Shown: positions 792 through 62,725, numbered from the stretch's first letter. The stretch is 64,000 nt of DNA from Candidatus Iainarchaeum sp. (GCA_028702895.1 JAQVNZ010000002.1:9296-73295), one strand, 5' to 3'. The notes: a model not told the origin generated them from the letters alone. A program made the numbers and translations.

Positions 792-2531
792 TTGATTTTT
801 AATAAAAATAATTTTTCTGGCCAAGGGACTATTGAGTATTTGGTAATAATTGCTATTGTTGTGGTTATTGGTTTATCAGTAGTTGCTATTTTAACTGGTT
901 TTTTGGATAATACTGGTGCGACTAGTGATTCGAGTCAAGACATTTCATTATTAACTAAAGATATTGCGATTACAGAAGTGTTACTAAATCCAACTGGGAT
1001 ATATGCAATTAATCTAAAATCAAATTTACCAAAAAACATTACTATTACTAAAGTTAGTTTAGGCGATTTTGACCAAGATATAACTGTTGATAATAAATTA
1101 TTTTTAGGAAATAAAAAACTTTTTACAGTATCTGATACTGAATCCAAGAATTGTGTTATTGGAGAATATGTTTCTAAAAAAATTGTGATTACTTATGTTA
1201 CTGCTCAAGGTTTACCTAAAACTCAAGAAATTGATAATGTAAGAATTCCTTGTCAATCTTTTGTAGCTGGAGTTCAATGTGCACTAGGTGAATTTGAACA
1301 TGATGGTGCATGTATTGTTTGTGAAAATAATCCTGATACTGGTGAAAAATTTGCTTTTGGATCTGGGACAGAAGAGGATCCTTATTTGATTTGTAGTTGG
1401 GAACAATTAAGCAATGTTCGTGAAAAATTAAATAGTTCATTTTTATTAAAAACAGATTTGACTGAAGATAGTAATAATTATGCGAATTTTAATTTGAGTG
1501 TAACAGGTTGGGATCCAATAGGTGACATACCTTATTGTAATAGTTCTGGTGGATTAGAATGTGAAGATAAATCAACTTGCGAAAAAGATTTTGGTTGTGG
1601 AAGCGATTGGGTGGAAAATAATTATTGTTCTAGTAGTGATTATGGGCCTGATGAATATGCGTGTAAGGAAAGCGCAGACATTTGTGAAAATGAATGTTTG
1701 GGTGACGCGGGAGAGTATTTTATGTGTCAGGGCCCATCATGGGTTTGCGGAGAGTTTTTGGATTCTGGGAGTTGTAACAATGCAGATTATGAAACGGTTG
1801 GATATTGTTGGGGGGAATCCTTTAATGGGGTCTGCGAAGTATACATGAGTAATCGAACCGAATGCGAGAGAAATTATGCTGGGATGTGTGGAGGGTCAGA
1901 TCCTGAGTGCGAGTGGCATTGGGACGAATATGATTGTGAATGGGATGGTGAAAATAACCCATCTGGTTGTACTTGGAATGAAATGGGTCCATGTCACTGG
2001 GATGGTGGGTGTTTTTGGTATGGTGAATGTTATAATATAGGTGGATGTAATGATAGTGAATTCCTTTGTACTACGTGTTATGGTAATATGTCTGGTAATG
2101 GGGTATGGATTGAAGGGGGGTATTGTGATGGTGCGATGTCGTGTGACAATGAGAGTGATTGTGAAAAGCCGTTAGGTTGTGGTTCAGATTGGATTGTGAA
2201 TAATTTTGTTGGAAATTTTGATGGAGAAAACCATACAATAAAAGGATTAAAAATTAACGATGATTCGGCTAGCATTATGGGTTTATTTAGAGAAACTGGG
2301 CAAAGTGGTCCACAAACTATAATAAAAAACACTATTTTGGAAGATATTTATATAATGGGGAATAATAATTTGGGCGGGGTTTCTGGAATAATTAATAATA
2401 CTCTTATTGACAATGTGCATGTTACTGGAAATATTTATGGTGGCCAAAATTTAGGCGGAATAGCGGGTATTGTAAGCGATGATTCTGAAATTAAAAATTC
2501 AACAGATGATGTAGAAATTTCTCCTTATTAA
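792..2531 (+). CDS. Secreted pilin-like protein: class III signal peptide, Cys/Trp/Asp-rich insertion, FxGxFDGxxHTI motif and about two GLUG-type repeats
   Basis: N-terminus ...SGQGTIEYLVIIAIVVVIGLSVVAIL resembles an archaeal prepilin (class III) signal peptide. The conserved block EEDPYLICSWEQL...GWDPIGD is shared with the two paralogs. The C-terminus has NFVGNFDGENHTIKGL followed by LGGVSGII..NVHVTGNIYGGQNLGGIAGIV, which are GLUG-like repeats. The protein is shorter than the paralogs and lacks their NYPILKWQIE end. Confidence 0.6.
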   Translation: MIFNKNNFSGQGTIEYLVIIAIVVVIGLSVVAILTGFLDNTGATSDSSQDISLLTKDIAITEVLLNPTGIYAINLKSNLPKNITITKVSLGDFDQDITVDNKLFLGNKKLFTVSDTESKNCVIGEYVSKKIVITYVTAQGLPKTQEIDNVRIPCQSFVAGVQCALGEFEHDGACIVCENNPDTGEKFAFGSGTEEDPYLICSWEQLSNVREKLNSSFLLKTDLTEDSNNYANFNLSVTGWDPIGDIPYCNSSGGLECEDKSTCEKDFGCGSDWVENNYCSSSDYGPDEYACKESADICENECLGDAGEYFMCQGPSWVCGEFLDSGSCNNADYETVGYCWGESFNGVCEVYMSNRTECERNYAGMCGGSDPECEWHWDEYDCEWDGENNPSGCTWNEMGPCHWDGGCFWYGECYNIGGCNDSEFLCTTCYGNMSGNGVWIEGGYCDGAMSCDNESDCEKPLGCGSDWIVNNFVGNFDGENHTIKGLKINDDSASIMGLFRETGQSGPQTIIKNTILEDIYIMGNNNLGGVSGIINNTLIDNVHVTGNIYGGQNLGGIAGIVSDDSEIKNSTDDVEISPY

Positions 2532-2678
2532 AATAAAAAATAACATTAATTTTGTATTAATTAAGGAATATATGTTATAAAAAAATTTAGTGTATATAGT
2601 TACTATTTTAGGTTAGTGATTTTGAAAGTAATCCTTATCTTATTTTAAATTAATTTATTTTTGTCAATTTTTTTATAT

Positions 2679-2834
2679 TTAGCATATTGGGCAAGAATTG
2701 TTTTGCATTTTTGTTTTTGCTAGTTTTACTAATTTTTGATTTCGTAATTTTAAATTTCTTTCTTTTTTCTTTGTTATTGCGCATAGTTCGTCACAAGTTA
2801 GTTTTTGTACTAATTCTTTTTCGTTTTTTATCAT
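2679..2834 (-). CDS. Candidate small Lys-rich 4-Cys (zinc-ribbon-like) protein, 51 aa, unannotated
   Basis: Manual translation gives MIKNEKELVQKLTCDELCAITKKKERNLKLRNQKLVKLAKTKMQNNSCPIC. It has a CxxxC ... CxxC arrangement. A strong Shine-Dalgarno GAGGTGA lies 6 nt upstream of the ATG, as for other genes here. The overlapping plus-strand ORF 2687..2929 is hydrophobic junk. Confidence 0.3.
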   Translation of the reverse strand: MIKNEKELVQKLTCDELCAITKKKERNLKLRNQKLVKLAKTKMQNNSCPIC

Positions 2835-60865: not shown

Positions 60866-61048
60866 GAAATTTTTTTAAAAAAAATCGCTATAAACCCACA
60901 AAACACCCATTAAATACAAAATGATTTAAACAATTCTTGTTTATTTTAAAAATCATTAATGCTATTCAAATTTATCTTGGAAAAGATTTAAAAGCGTTGC
61001 GTGTTCGAAATCATTTTTTTGAAAAGATTAATAAAAGTTATTCATTAA

Positions 61049-62725
61049 TTATTCGATTTGCCATTTTAATATTGGATAATTATTTTCTTGGGATGTCCAA
61101 ATATTTTCAAAATCCCATGTTGGATTAGTCGTATAAACTGCATGTGTTTGATCAAAAAACTCATTTATTTGTGTAATAGTTCCACATCCAGTTACTCCGC
61201 AAACACTTGCATTATCGTCTGGTTGATTAAACCACCAAACGTTGGTTGCTTTTCCATTTGACAAAAGCATATCGATTATCCCGCTTGGGGAATTTGTTCC
61301 GAGTATTTTTCCAGTGTTGTATGAATTCTTAACATGTCCTGTGGGCCCAGAAACTAATGGGGTTATGCCTGCGCTATTTGTTAGCCCTGTGATATTCCCT
61401 GTATTATAACAATTAATTATTTGGGATCCGACTATTGTTCCTGCAATACCTCCATAATATTGTTTTAATCCCGAGTTAAAACTTATGTTTCCGGTATTGT
61501 ATGAATCGTTAATACTAACATTTGAATTTAAATATCCTGCGAGCCCTCCAATGTGTTGGCTATTGCTAATAATATTTCCTGTGTTATAACTTTGATTTAT
61601 TGTTGAGTAATTTTCGATTTTACCACTAATCCCGCCTACATATTGGCCACCAATAACATTTGATGTATTGTGTATTTTTGTTAAATTTGATAATTGAAAA
61701 TAACCAATTATTCCGCCTGTATATACTCCGTTTGATTTTCCTTTAATCGTTCCTGAACAAAAAATGTTATTTATTGTTGAATTATTAGAATAGCCACTAA
61801 GTCCTCCAACAAAACTATTTCCTGTTATGTTTAAGTCTGTTAATTTTAAATTAATTATTTCTGCATTAACAATTTCTCCAAAAAATCCAATGCTTGATAA
61901 ACTTAGTCTGTTTACATAAATTCCATTTATTGTTTTGTTGTTTCCATTAAAACTTCCAGTAAATGCATTTGGATCATTTCCAATTGGTTCCCATCCTAAT
62001 ATGCCATTCCAATTAATTGTTTCACTTGCATCAATATCTTTCATTAAAATATAATTTCCATCTAGTTTGTCGCGTATTTGGTTTAAATCTTGCAAAGAAC
62101 AAATTTGAATTAGTTCATTTTCATTTTTAAAACAATGGTCTGGTAGTATTGGATCTTCTGTTGGTTCTGGGTTGTCTTCACATTGGATTATTGTTTTTTG
62201 AGTAATTGTTTTTTCTAAACCATGTTTTGTTTTATAAGTTATTTGAAATTCGCAGGTTTTTGTTTTTTGATTTGGTTCACATTCACAAGTATTAGTTAAT
62301 TGTATTAATTCATTGTTTCCTTGTTGTATTGTTTCATTATATTTGTTTTCGCCATTTTCAGTTGTTATTTTTGTTATTGTAATTGTTTCACCACTATTAT
62401 TTTTAAAATTTAATAATCCTGTGTCGTTTGAAGTATTTGTTATTGATTCAATAACACTTATTCCTCCTACTCCAAGTTGTCCTTTTAGTTGGTCGTTTGT
62501 TTGTGTGATTTGTTGTATATCAAACATGTTTGTTGAGATTCCTGCGACGATTAATCCTATTACAATTATGATTGCAATAATGATTAGGTATTCTATAGTG
62601 CCTTGTGCATTATTCTTTTGATGAAACTTTTTTAAAAAGTTTCCTATAGTTCCTTGTGCACTATTATTTTGATGAAACTTTTTTGAAAAGTTTTTTATTG
62701 TTCCTTGTGCTTTGTTGTTTTGCAT
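61049..62725 (-). CDS. Secreted pilin-like adhesin paralog (class III signal peptide plus GLUG repeats) with tandemly triplicated signal-peptide motif
   Basis: The N-terminus carries three copies of KKFHQ(N/K)N.AQGTI before the hydrophobic EYLIIIAIIIVIGLIVAGIS. It shares the NTS/TQTNDQLKGQ...KITTENG domain, the FTGSFNGNNKTINGIY motif, at least 7 GLUG-type repeats and the NYPILKWQIE terminus with 2960..4492. Confidence 0.65.
   Translation of the reverse strand: MQNNKAQGTIKNFSKKFHQNNSAQGTIGNFLKKFHQKNNAQGTIEYLIIIAIIIVIGLIVAGISTNMFDIQQITQTNDQLKGQLGVGGISVIESITNTSNDTGLLNFKNNSGETITITKITTENGENKYNETIQQGNNELIQLTNTCECEPNQKTKTCEFQITYKTKHGLEKTITQKTIIQCEDNPEPTEDPILPDHCFKNENELIQICSLQDLNQIRDKLDGNYILMKDIDASETINWNGILGWEPIGNDPNAFTGSFNGNNKTINGIYVNRLSLSSIGFFGEIVNAEIINLKLTDLNITGNSFVGGLSGYSNNSTINNIFCSGTIKGKSNGVYTGGIIGYFQLSNLTKIHNTSNVIGGQYVGGISGKIENYSTINQSYNTGNIISNSQHIGGLAGYLNSNVSINDSYNTGNISFNSGLKQYYGGIAGTIVGSQIINCYNTGNITGLTNSAGITPLVSGPTGHVKNSYNTGKILGTNSPSGIIDMLLSNGKATNVWWFNQPDDNASVCGVTGCGTITQINEFFDQTHAVYTTNPTWDFENIWTSQENNYPILKWQIE
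62591..62725. repeat. About 2.7 tandem copies of a 51-bp unit inside the 5' end of the pilin-like gene (17-aa protein repeat)
   Basis: Units 62591..62640, 62641..62691 and 62692..62725 are about 85-90% identical (ttcctatagtKccttgtgcaYtattMttttgatgaaacttttttRaaaagt). Confidence 0.6.

Follow-up and report, generated by a model that had tools for sequence, protein, structure and literature searches.

Two complete proteins, ORF2 and ORF3, and a decayed or remodelled one, ORF1, probably represent modular type IV pilin-like surface proteins, whose binding modules would be displayed by filament machinery; sequence and structural models argue for this reading, which is held with moderate confidence. 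They are encoded in a stretch of 64,000 nucleotides (the window) from a MAG of Candidatus Iainarchaeum sp., a small DPANN archaeon of the Iainarchaeota. The three ORFs lie where an earlier note on this DNA had placed them and have a common layout: a short polar leader, the motif QGTIEYL, a hydrophobic stretch of ~25 residues and GLUG repeats. Inspection of the sequences agrees with that note on the charged or polar leader and the hydrophobic segment following it, and its core reading, a class III N-terminus joined to a GLUG beta-helix that is not pilin-sized, as a putative pilin-like adhesin or a surface protein anchored by a pilin-like helix, was upheld by HMM searches, AlphaFold and fold matches, and the architecture of the family. 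In the six-frame translation of the window, QGTIEYL occurs only three times, once in each ORF. The features are the following:

792..2531, plus strand: ORF1 (PHX27_00690), 579 aa, TTG start, divergent paralog (ORF)
2960..4492, minus strand: ORF2 (PHX27_00700), 510 aa, complete GLUG protein of the modular pilin-like type (ORF, exact match to the NCBI MAG protein)
2960..2994: 35-nt stretch, stop codon and NYPILKWQIE codons (exact run identical to 61049..61083)
2963..3904, minus strand: ORF2 GLUG beta-helix module, aa 197-510, with NYPILKWQIE as the end of its C-terminal cap (AF2, Foldseek, Pfam)
3992..4417, minus strand: ORF2 pilin-like carrier module, aa 26-167
4418..4492, minus strand: ORF2 leader, aa 1-25, MNKIKKNVHPNIITFLKKFHQNNNA, with predicted removal between A25 and Q26 (family conservation, EppA rule)
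61049..61083: the 35-nt stretch again, identical to 2960..2994 (exact run)
61049..62725, minus strand: ORF3 (PHX27_01085), 558 aa, complete paralog (ORF, HMM, alignment)
62593..62722, minus strand: 51-nt tandem repeat, 2.5 copies with 86% matches, in the ORF3 leader (TRF)

The C-terminal part is the most readily recognized. All three ORFs pass the GLUG model PF07581, with 21.7 (ORF1), 30.4 (ORF2) and 21.2 bits (ORF3) against a cut-off of 20.5; Pfam delimits one, four and three GLUG stretches, respectively, and the motif F.G.F(D/N)G.N..I is found together with GGLxG repeats. The AF2 model of ORF2 (mean pLDDT 84.3, pTM 0.70) consists of an N-terminal helix, a beta-sandwich and a beta-helix, so that both elements expected for this ORF, the helix and the GLUG beta-helix, are seen. 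The beta-helix spans aa 197-505, mostly with a pLDDT >90, and in a Foldseek search restricted to the ORF2 model, it matches the beta-helix domain of pneumococcal IgA1 protease, with hits to the structures 7uvl_P (E 4.6e-4) and 6xjb. For ORF2 only, the module is thus modelled as a right-handed beta-helix like the N-terminal domain of IgA1 protease. ORF3 shows a sub-threshold Peptidase_M26_N match (E 0.0012) and a match to residues 910-1109 of ZmpA (E 1.2e-5).

The repeat and the beta-helix are homologous to those of the M26 IgA1 metalloproteases, ZmpA and IgA1P (PF07581, PF05342, NF046017 region 910-1109; 7uvl, 6xjb). In these enzymes, the beta-helix is a non-catalytic gating domain (PMC7695701). 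An identity as M26 IgA1-specific metalloprotease was considered and rejected: unlike these proteases, the three ORFs have no protease domain, with no HExxH in a motif scan and no Peptidase_M26_C match in Pfam, and only the non-catalytic beta-helix is held in common. Other bacterial GLUG homologues share the conserved C-terminal YPxLxWQ cap, but they carry Sec or lipoprotein signals with T9SS or other anchors, and no pilin-like N-terminus.

The carrier module of ORF2 comprises a hydrophobic helix (28-50), a low-confidence linker (51-71) and a beta-sandwich (74-167) with four conserved cysteines at 132, 134, 143 and 167. The best fold matches of the sandwich are archaeal type IV pilins, with low TM-scores of 0.37-0.48 (Foldseek). 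As the segment between helix and sandwich is modelled with low confidence, packing like that of a true pilin is uncertain. Stand-alone short versions of this N-terminal module (the N-module) are rare and mostly fragment-like; hence, it is probably not a major pilin.

Ahead of the carrier, the three ORFs display the layout of a class III signal: a leader that is short and polar, a small -1 residue, the motif and a hydrophobic stretch of ~20 residues. The leaders are 10 (ORF1), 25 (ORF2) and 40 aa long (ORF3) and end in G, A and A, respectively, at -1, which predicts cleavage between G10 and Q11, A25 and Q26, and A40 and Q41. The same holds in the family: each of the 205 members scanned has either A (165) or G (40) at -1, their median leader is 9 aa, and Q+1, T+3, E+5, Y+6 and L+7 are invariant in alignments of 39 and 25 homologues. 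In EppA substrates, the leader ends in Gly and is followed by Gln at +1 and Glu at +5, and Flp pilins have Tyr at +6 (PMC3875500). By this residue pattern, the cleavage site is most likely of the EppA/Flp type (Q+1, E+5, Y+6), between A/G and QGTIEYL; the site proposed earlier, after AQG, should be moved to before the Q. The bacterial prepilin N-methylation model gave no match in Pfam or NCBIfam scans of the ORFs, and the motif is, by its residues, of the archaeal/Flp type. The 51-nt repeat of ORF3 encodes KKFHQNNxAQGTI units; it accounts for the 40-aa leader and places two decoy AQGTI motifs ahead of the predicted A40-Q41 site, a feature seen in 16 of the 205 members. The formal search for a class III signal gave a divided answer: the motif is present, but the Class_IIIsignal scores (PF04021; 14.4, 22.0 and 20.6 bits for ORF1, ORF2 and ORF3) fall just below the gathering threshold of 23.7. 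The motif also occurs in a Flp-like pilin of 62 aa, which is encoded 68 nt upstream of a family member (locus L021) and exceeds this threshold with 25.4 bits. The window further encodes a protein of the surface type (38998..40929) that combines a classical Sec signal peptide with an anchor at the C-terminus; the organism thus appears to use both systems distinctly.

The three proteins had been described as paralogs. The related architecture stands, but to treat them as equivalent would be an overstatement, as ORF1 is only remotely related and its GLUG domain is missing the C-terminal part. ORF1 shares only 30% identity over the N-terminal 290 aa. After its leader, pilin-like module and the start of a GLUG domain, it contains a Cys/Trp-rich insert of ~230 aa (about nt 1530..2200), for which no homologue or significant match was found, and it ends after a further GLUG region of ~100 aa, without the YPxLxWQ cap. 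ORF2 and ORF3 are 45% identical overall. Their signal and pilin-like module are conserved (71% at the protein level, 79% for the DNA over ~490 nt at the 5' end), compared with 44% and 65%, respectively, for the GLUG module. Their 3' ends are indeed identical over the NYPILKWQIE coding sequence, with a length of 35 nt instead of the ~40 nt previously given; the identity runs inwards from the stop codon and includes no intergenic DNA.

On profile and domain matches, the three ORFs belong to a large uncharacterised family, in which different putative binding domains are swapped onto one pilin-like carrier. A profile of the N-module retrieved at least 1,266 protein clusters, 284 of them at E <= 1e-30, and its position is N-terminal throughout. 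In 97 members, Pfam matched 23 families, of which about 20 are partner domains: Glug (36) and Peptidase_M26_N (21), besides Big_7, SBBP, Reg_prop, DUF285/BspA-LRR, NHL, Lcl_C, PKD, RCC1, FG-GAP, LamG_3 and Kazal. GLUG, beta-propeller, LRR, lectin, Ig-like and other domain types are thus found on a common carrier. For example, P0038 of the same genome joins the N-module, at 66-72% identity, to a DUF285 domain.

Candidate machinery for such a display is encoded elsewhere in the genome. No filament genes adjoin ORF1, ORF2 or ORF3 in the window, but the search for a pilus ATPase beyond it, suggested by the earlier note, was successful: the MAG encodes a type IV filament core of one ATPase and two platform genes. 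The T2SSE ATPase (MDD4251350.1) adjoins the paralog PHX27_04135 (MDD4251351.1). Contigs with an identical ATPase show the order P0015 C-terminus, ATPase, weak T2SSF (22.9 bits against a cut-off of 25.2), T2SSF, PAC2 and a convergent GLUG gene, the latter being the continuation of P0002, the closest paralog of ORF2. The T2SSE and two T2SSF-like genes are therefore flanked by the two closest paralogs, P0015 and P0002, in the same MAG. A pair of platform genes characterizes TFF system 1, whose presence in DPANN has been reported (bioRxiv 10.64898/2026.04.22.720090).

The Epd pilus of Methanococcus maripaludis, likewise a system 1 with an ATPase and two platform genes, is a close parallel. Its EppA substrates (DUF361/PF04021) also have a small residue at the end of the leader, Gln at +1 and Glu at +5, and some are large with adhesin-like domains. 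In contrast to the proteins of the window, the M. maripaludis pilins lack the Flp-like Tyr at +6 (PMC3875500), and the window proteins score just under the PF04021 threshold and have distinct conserved beta-sandwich and GLUG modules. EppA is known in M. maripaludis, whereas a motif scan of the window and all related loci analysed found no prepilin peptidase.

From the sequences and models, we infer cleavage, filament incorporation, and a binding function with its target, as follows. An EppA/Flp-type prepilin peptidase would remove the short polar leader before QGTIEYL, leaving Gln at +1, Glu at +5 and Tyr at +6. The exposed hydrophobic helix and the small, putatively disulfide-stabilised beta-sandwich would form the pilin-like carrier, joined by a Pro/Gln-rich linker to the non-catalytic, right-handed GLUG beta-helix, which is homologous to the substrate-gating beta-helix of the M26 proteases and would serve as the binding module. 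Type IV filament machinery of the system 1 or Epd-like kind, with one ATPase and two platform proteins, would pull the carrier out of the membrane, so that the binding module may be shown at the tip of a pilus-like filament, along its length or in the form of a short stub. Several observations weigh against this reading: the sub-threshold Class_IIIsignal scores, the negative peptidase scan, the low TM-scores to pilins, the low-confidence segment behind the helix, the rarity of stand-alone short N-modules, the many bulky paralogs, and the scarce linkage to filament genes, which adjoin none of the three ORFs.

A bindosome-like display without a true pilus is a serious, if less probable, alternative. 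The class III signal would be processed, but the N-terminal helix would keep the proteins at the cell surface, embedded either in the membrane or in a pseudopilus of very small length, as has been proposed for the sugar-binding proteins of Sulfolobus; this would make the GLUG domains adhesins or binders of the cell envelope and not of a pilus tip. Bulky paralogs are numerous: at least five loci lie on one 946-kb contig, one locus (L001) holds at least six copies in 16 kb, and a number of six or more per genome is as compatible with display on the cell surface as with display at a pilus tip. Moreover, short versions of the N-module are rare, and filament genes are not linked to most loci: a Walker-A motif scan of about 1 Mb of flanking DNA found a T2SSE ATPase within 10 kb in only one of 76 related loci. 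In archaea, it is accepted that binding proteins other than pilins can carry class III signals (bioRxiv 10.64898/2026.04.22.720090; PMC4858521). Against it stand the nearest paralogs on either side of the ATPase and platform operon, the Flp-like pilin gene immediately ahead of the family member in L021, and the invariance across the family of Glu+5, a residue associated with assembly in type IV pilins. These points also fit a bindosome, whose machinery is of the same kind, and the two explanations hence differ mainly in filament length. The Sulfolobus proteins are similarly large non-pilin binding proteins, displayed at the surface by means of a prepilin-type signal and of an ATPase and platform system that resembles a type IV filament system. 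They are, however, substrate-binding proteins feeding ABC transporters in Thermoproteota, whereas the Iainarchaeota family has adhesin-type folds (beta-helix, propeller, LRR, lectin) and no transporter linkage.

It is improbable that these are ordinary surface proteins, anchored by an uncleaved signal or secreted through a normal Sec signal peptide, with QGTIEYL conserved for some other reason. The sub-threshold Class_IIIsignal scores and the negative peptidase scan would fit this, as would the leaders of ORF2 and ORF3, which are long for class III signals. Nevertheless, the motif precedes the hydrophobic stretch, and the constant A/G at -1 with invariant Q+1, E+5 and Y+6 is the pattern of a prepilin peptidase/Flp substrate, not of a Sec h-region followed by AxA; an identical motif also starts the Flp-like pilin that surpasses the Pfam threshold, and the Sec-type protein at 38998..40929 speaks for a separate use of the Sec pathway.

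ORF2 and ORF3 are both on the minus strand, in direct orientation and 56.6 kb apart, positions that agree with the earlier description of direct repeats around the translation and transcription genes. Between them lie aIF5B, GluRS, SecY, S3, L3, EF-1alpha, EF-2, RpoA', RpoB, RpoH and related genes, and ORF3 sits directly upstream of rpoH on the same strand. The significance attached to this bracketing was not confirmed; it looks coincidental, because a close relative has no gene where ORF3 lies, and the paralogs are scattered. In this relative (RpoB 94% identical), DUF2203 is immediately adjacent to rpoH, two other class III proteins are encoded on the far side of DUF2203, and family members are spread among housekeeping genes in ~1-Mb genomes. 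That the pair marks or mobilises the supercluster, for instance by anchoring recombination that amplifies or excises it, is suggested by its co-orientation and spacing, the similar 5' regions and the 35-nt identity but is very improbable, given the relative and the scattered members, an identity that covers only the conserved beta-helix cap up to the stop codon, and the loss of essential genes upon excision.

The modular type IV pilin-like reading has a close counterpart in bacteria. With an N-terminal pilin module, an additional known domain and varied architectures on one carrier, the pilin-like family is an archaeal counterpart of the bacterial modular pilins (PilB with vWA and PilC with a lectin domain in S. 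sanguinis, CofB and ComZ; Raynaud et al. 2021, PMC8179133). These also combine an N-terminal class III pilin module, a linker and a bulky binding module, graft many alternative modules, including LamG-type lectins, and are proposed to act in adhesion through the filament. They differ in being defined on the bacterial IPR012902 motif, and archaea are not mentioned in PMC8179133; the Iainarchaeota family, known from sequence and models, has an archaeal-type helix and Ig-like sandwich, Q+1/E+5/Y+6 and a GLUG beta-helix. A role in host attachment is speculation. As a multi-copy family that combines the same carrier with many alternative binding modules, these proteins would provide the organism with a variable repertoire of adhesins.

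The three open reading frames (ORFs) that the earlier note described as prepilin-GLUG fusions exist exactly as stated there, in a genome of the phylum Iainarchaeota, kingdom Nanobdellati (DPANN). Their products are very likely modular surface proteins of one type or another that carry a class III signal. More specifically, they probably belong to a modular family of surface proteins resembling type IV pilins, which would be cleaved at (A/G)|Q and displayed by means of system-1-type filament machinery, with the GLUG beta-helix as one of many binding modules.

The three ORFs, with locus tags of the source MAG and Pfam scores (cut-offs: GLUG PF07581, 20.5 bits; Class_IIIsignal PF04021, 23.7 bits)
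792..2531, plus strand: ORF1, PHX27_00690; GLUG 21.7 bits, Class_IIIsignal 14.4 bits
2960..4492, minus strand: ORF2, PHX27_00700; GLUG 30.4 bits, Class_IIIsignal 22.0 bits
61049..62725, minus strand: ORF3, PHX27_01085; GLUG 21.2 bits, Class_IIIsignal 20.6 bits

GLUG is thus over its cut-off in all three, as had been expected from the repeats, and Class_IIIsignal is under its own in all three. ORF3 also touches Peptidase_M26_N, and residues 910-1109 of ZmpA (NCBIfam) align with it. A six-frame scan of the 64 kb found the Q[GAS][TS]xE[YF]L-type motif at the N-termini of these ORFs only. The three had been presented as equivalent paralogs, which holds for two of them. ORF2 and ORF3 are complete copies with 45% overall identity and a mosaic similarity: protein and DNA identities are 71% and 79% for the leader and carrier (the N-module, composed of class III leader, QGTIEYL motif, hydrophobic helix and beta-sandwich), but 44% and 65% for the GLUG region. 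Their 3' ends are identical, over a run of 35 nt from the stop codon rather than about 40 nt, coding for NYPILKWQIE. This tail caps the GLUG beta-helix and is conserved: other paralogs, and bacterial homologues too, have like tails (consensus YPxLxWQ). Hence, the identity needs no special explanation.

ORF1, on the other hand, is a remote relative (30% identity across the N-terminal 290 residues), and its GLUG region ends after about 100 residues, without the cap. Between the landmarks 'GWDPIG' and 'FVGNFDGENHTI', it carries a Cys/Trp-rich insert of about 230 aa, for which a search of 5.8 billion proteins returned no homologue; a 935-aa class III protein from a related locus (L040) has a Cys-rich tail that resembles the insert in composition only (E 0.31). 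Continuation by a frameshift was rejected, as no GLUG-like ORF is present in any frame of the 430-bp spacer (2531..2960), and ORF1 is taken for a member of the family that is divergent, truncated or remodelled. The same spacer, lying between the convergent ORF1 and ORF2, holds a 54-aa Lys-rich ORF with CxxC-like ends and no family match (2679..2843, minus strand), which may be the counterpart of the locus tag between PHX27_00690 and PHX27_00700.

The AlphaFold2 model of ORF2, built on a 39-sequence alignment (mean pLDDT 84.3, pTM 0.70), exhibits the N-terminal helix and the GLUG beta-helix anticipated in the earlier note.

Segments of the ORF2 model
aa 28-50: helix
aa 51-71: low-confidence segment
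aa 74-167: beta-sandwich with four nearly invariant Cys
aa 168-196: linker
aa 197-505: beta-helix, pLDDT mostly >90

Foldseek matches in the PDB form two groups: one is the pneumococcal IgA1 protease (7uvl, 6xjb), the other consists of type IV pilins and archaellum proteins from archaea (8fk7, 6w8u, 8q30, 6nav, FlaF/FlaG and 9eq7). The TM-scores to pilins are only 0.37-0.48, and the Aap pilin gives a weak sequence-profile match (E 0.012). Because of these low scores and the weak profile match, the predicted resemblance to pilins depends on helix and sandwich combined, not on the sandwich alone. The beta-helix of the IgA1 protease is a non-catalytic gating domain (PMC7695701); a protease function was rejected for the three ORFs, since none contains HExxH.

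About half of the best 120 homologues of ORF2 are archaeal, with the same N-terminus and GLUG, and the remainder, from bacteria, combine GLUG with Sec or lipoprotein signals and often have T9SS tails. A profile of the N-module retrieved 1,266 clusters (50% identity) at E <= 1e-3 and 284 at E <= 1e-30; the module is invariably N-terminal, in proteins mostly of 400-900 aa. The Pfam domains of 97 such proteins show what it can be joined to: Glug (36) and Peptidase_M26_N (21) are the commonest partners, followed by Big_7 (9), SBBP (6), Reg_prop (5) and DUF285/BspA-type (4), and further by NHL, SGL, Lcl_C, PKD, RCC1, FG-GAP, Beta_helix, Laminin_G_3 and Kazal. Within the source MAG, the homologue P0038 has an N-module 66-72% identical to those of ORF2 and ORF3, fused to a DUF285 domain. 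Species-representative genomes contain 153 relatives, the named ones all from Iainarchaeota-type MAGs, with several copies per genome, and one metagenomic contig (L001) carries at least six copies in 16 kb, interspersed with PolB, methionine aminopeptidase and HisRS. Stand-alone N-modules were considered as a major pilin and rejected, the short matches being mostly fragments. The design, a carrier with interchangeable modules, is the same as that of the bacterial modular pilins (PMC8179133), a paper confined to non-archaeal systems. No paper treating GLUG together with DPANN was found in the literature searched.

Some related contigs call for separate mention. A block composed of a 493-495-aa HerA/DUF87-like protein (weak match), a coiled-coil protein and PolB stands beside family arrays in two unrelated contigs (L001 3533..5014 and L073 113..1600), in L001 preceded by small multi-TM proteins. 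The locus on CAYTIW010000030.1 (L041), labelled Planctomycetales, is probably an archaeal contig mis-binned in a bacterial MAG, because its match statistics equal those of an archaeal locus (L042).

In the window, the neighbours of the three ORFs (DAHP synthase, amino-acid permease, Kae1, CAAX protease, RpoE, aIF2-gamma, DUF2203 and peptidase U32) include no pilus genes. The ORFs stand alone, as many archaeal pilin genes do. General co-localisation of the family with filament genes was rejected as well: a Walker-A scan of the flanks of 76 related loci (~1 Mb) yielded a single T2SSE ATPase. The source MAG encodes a homologue of this ATPase with 77% identity, MDD4251350.1, whose accession is consecutive with that of a paralog, PHX27_04135 (P0015, MDD4251351.1), on a common 6.8-kb contig. 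The identical ATPase is found in independent assemblies (L080 1..5746 and L081 1..4876), where the order is the C-terminus of PHX27_04135 (identical sequence), T2SSE, a T2SSF-like gene, T2SSF, PAC2 and a convergent GLUG gene. The first platform gene encodes 330 aa, with a weak T2SSF match (22.9 bits vs. a cut-off of 25.2), and the second, a 313-aa T2SSF protein. P0015 lies upstream of the ATPase operon on the same strand; the convergent GLUG gene downstream overlaps and continues the end of PHX27_02820 (P0002), the closest paralog of ORF2, which has a repeated leader as in ORF3. These assemblies also show that the 6.8-kb and 16.6-kb contigs of the source MAG are neighbours in the genome.

The pilus ATPase that the earlier note proposed to look for on other contigs is therefore present with two T2SSF-like genes, although not beside the ORFs of the window. 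As the ATPase/platform operon is flanked by P0015 and P0002, the organism possesses filament machinery to which close paralogs are physically linked. The combination of one ATPase and two platform genes marks the archaeal TFF system 1 (Epd-like), reported in DPANN (bioRxiv 10.64898/2026.04.22.720090). Another related locus, L021, looks like a compact pilin locus.

Features of L021
615..803: 62-aa Flp/Epd-like pilin with A|QGAIEYLLI; Class_IIIsignal 25.4 bits, over threshold
872..2677: 601-aa modular GLUG family member, 68 nt downstream of the short pilin
2805..6710: 1,301-aa surface protein containing CarboxypepD_reg

The main rival to entry of the carrier into a long filament is its entry into a bindosome-like stub. 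This is the sole difference from the favoured reading.

The alignment of 39 full-length homologues has five invariant N-terminal positions, which in ORF2 are Q26, T28, E30, Y31 and L32. Gln is always preceded by A (165) or G (40) in the 205 family members that have the motif, and the median leader is nine residues long. EppA substrates have Gly at the end of the leader, Gln at +1 and Glu at +5, and Flp pilins have a tyrosine at +6 (PMC3875500). With the pattern (A/G)|Q-G-T-I-E-Y, Gln would be residue +1, Glu +5 and Tyr +6; hence, the predicted cleavage is most likely before Gln, two residues further upstream than the AQG|T site first suggested. A plain Sec signal or membrane anchor, with which the sub-threshold Class_IIIsignal scores could be reconciled, is an unlikely explanation of these proteins.

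The leader of ORF3 is unusual: its 40 residues are made by a 51-nt tandem repeat (2.5 copies, 62593..62722), duplicating 'KKFHQNNxAQGTI'. A decoy AQGTI upstream of the real site occurs in 16 of the 205 members, from diverged lineages (P0002, P0033, P0054, P0173, P0201 and P0218 among them). The decoys are in-frame duplicates of the leader and the first five mature residues, without the hydrophobic stretch, and could be recombination scars, extra peptidase sites or mis-called starts. A regular expression for the GxGD-type motif of prepilin peptidases had zero matches over the fetched loci and the window, a weak test that does not imply absence. The conserved membrane protein at 4997..5602 was considered as a divergent peptidase and rejected: it matches no Pfam family, lacks Asp motifs and simply accompanies the permease/Kae1 block.

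The paralogs had also been said to bracket the ribosomal/RNAP supercluster. The translation and transcription core does lie between ORF2 and ORF3, but so do unrelated genes, and since these ~1-Mb genomes contain many paralogs, flanking of a 56-kb block is expected by chance; a role in genomic architecture is unlikely. In a close relative (L067, RpoB 94% identical), U32 is followed by a pair of class III proteins, DUF2203 and rpoH, vs. U32, DUF2203, ORF3 and rpoH in the window. Because of this difference, ORF3 is taken to occupy a lineage-specific position, in a region where such genes are gained and lost. At least four relatives also have the ORF1/ORF2 locus, beside the block of membrane protein, permease and Kae1.

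The two tandem class III proteins of the relative (L067 5063..9198) have the carrier of the window and other C-terminal parts, by eye Lcl_C/FGE-like and LamG-like. The unrelated genes between ORF2 and ORF3 include the following two.

38998..40929, minus strand: protein of 643 aa that matches no Pfam family, encoded within the ribosomal-protein cluster immediately upstream of L3; signal peptide of the classical Sec or lipobox-like kind (…MVSA|CS), Asn/Thr-rich, beta-rich body and C-terminal transmembrane anchor; resembles an S-layer protein or surface glycoprotein
46739..48709, minus strand: DUF2207 membrane protein of 656 aa, between the EF-2 and EF-1alpha genes

How DPANN archaea recognize surfaces or host cells and stay attached to them is, to our knowledge, largely unknown, and their surface proteins mostly carry the annotation 'hypothetical'. 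Host attachment is a plausible putative role of the family, which fits the DPANN lineage. The family offers a testable candidate for attachment, with a conserved and easily recognizable carrier ((A/G)|QGTIEYL, helix, four-Cys sandwich) and swappable binding domains, and it is physically linked, within one genome, to a minimal operon for a type IV filament. The modular-pilin principle, so far bacterial, is thereby extended to archaea, and a simple rule is suggested by which over 1,000 uncharacterised protein clusters could be annotated. Should the carrier really enter a filament, these proteins would be natural scaffolds for archaeal surface display. A bolder and doubtful proposal is that, in Iainarchaeota and possibly other DPANN, the conserved carrier is a universal scaffold for diversifying adhesins (GLUG beta-helices, propellers, LRRs, lectins) on an Epd/Flp-like pilus, and that paralog recombination at the 5' carrier and the 3' cap, leaving scars such as duplicated leaders, generates the adhesin variation deciding which hosts or surfaces can be attached to. 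If true, this would be an archaeal analogue of modular pilins and of pilin antigenic variation, and would make host recognition by DPANN accessible in concrete molecular terms.
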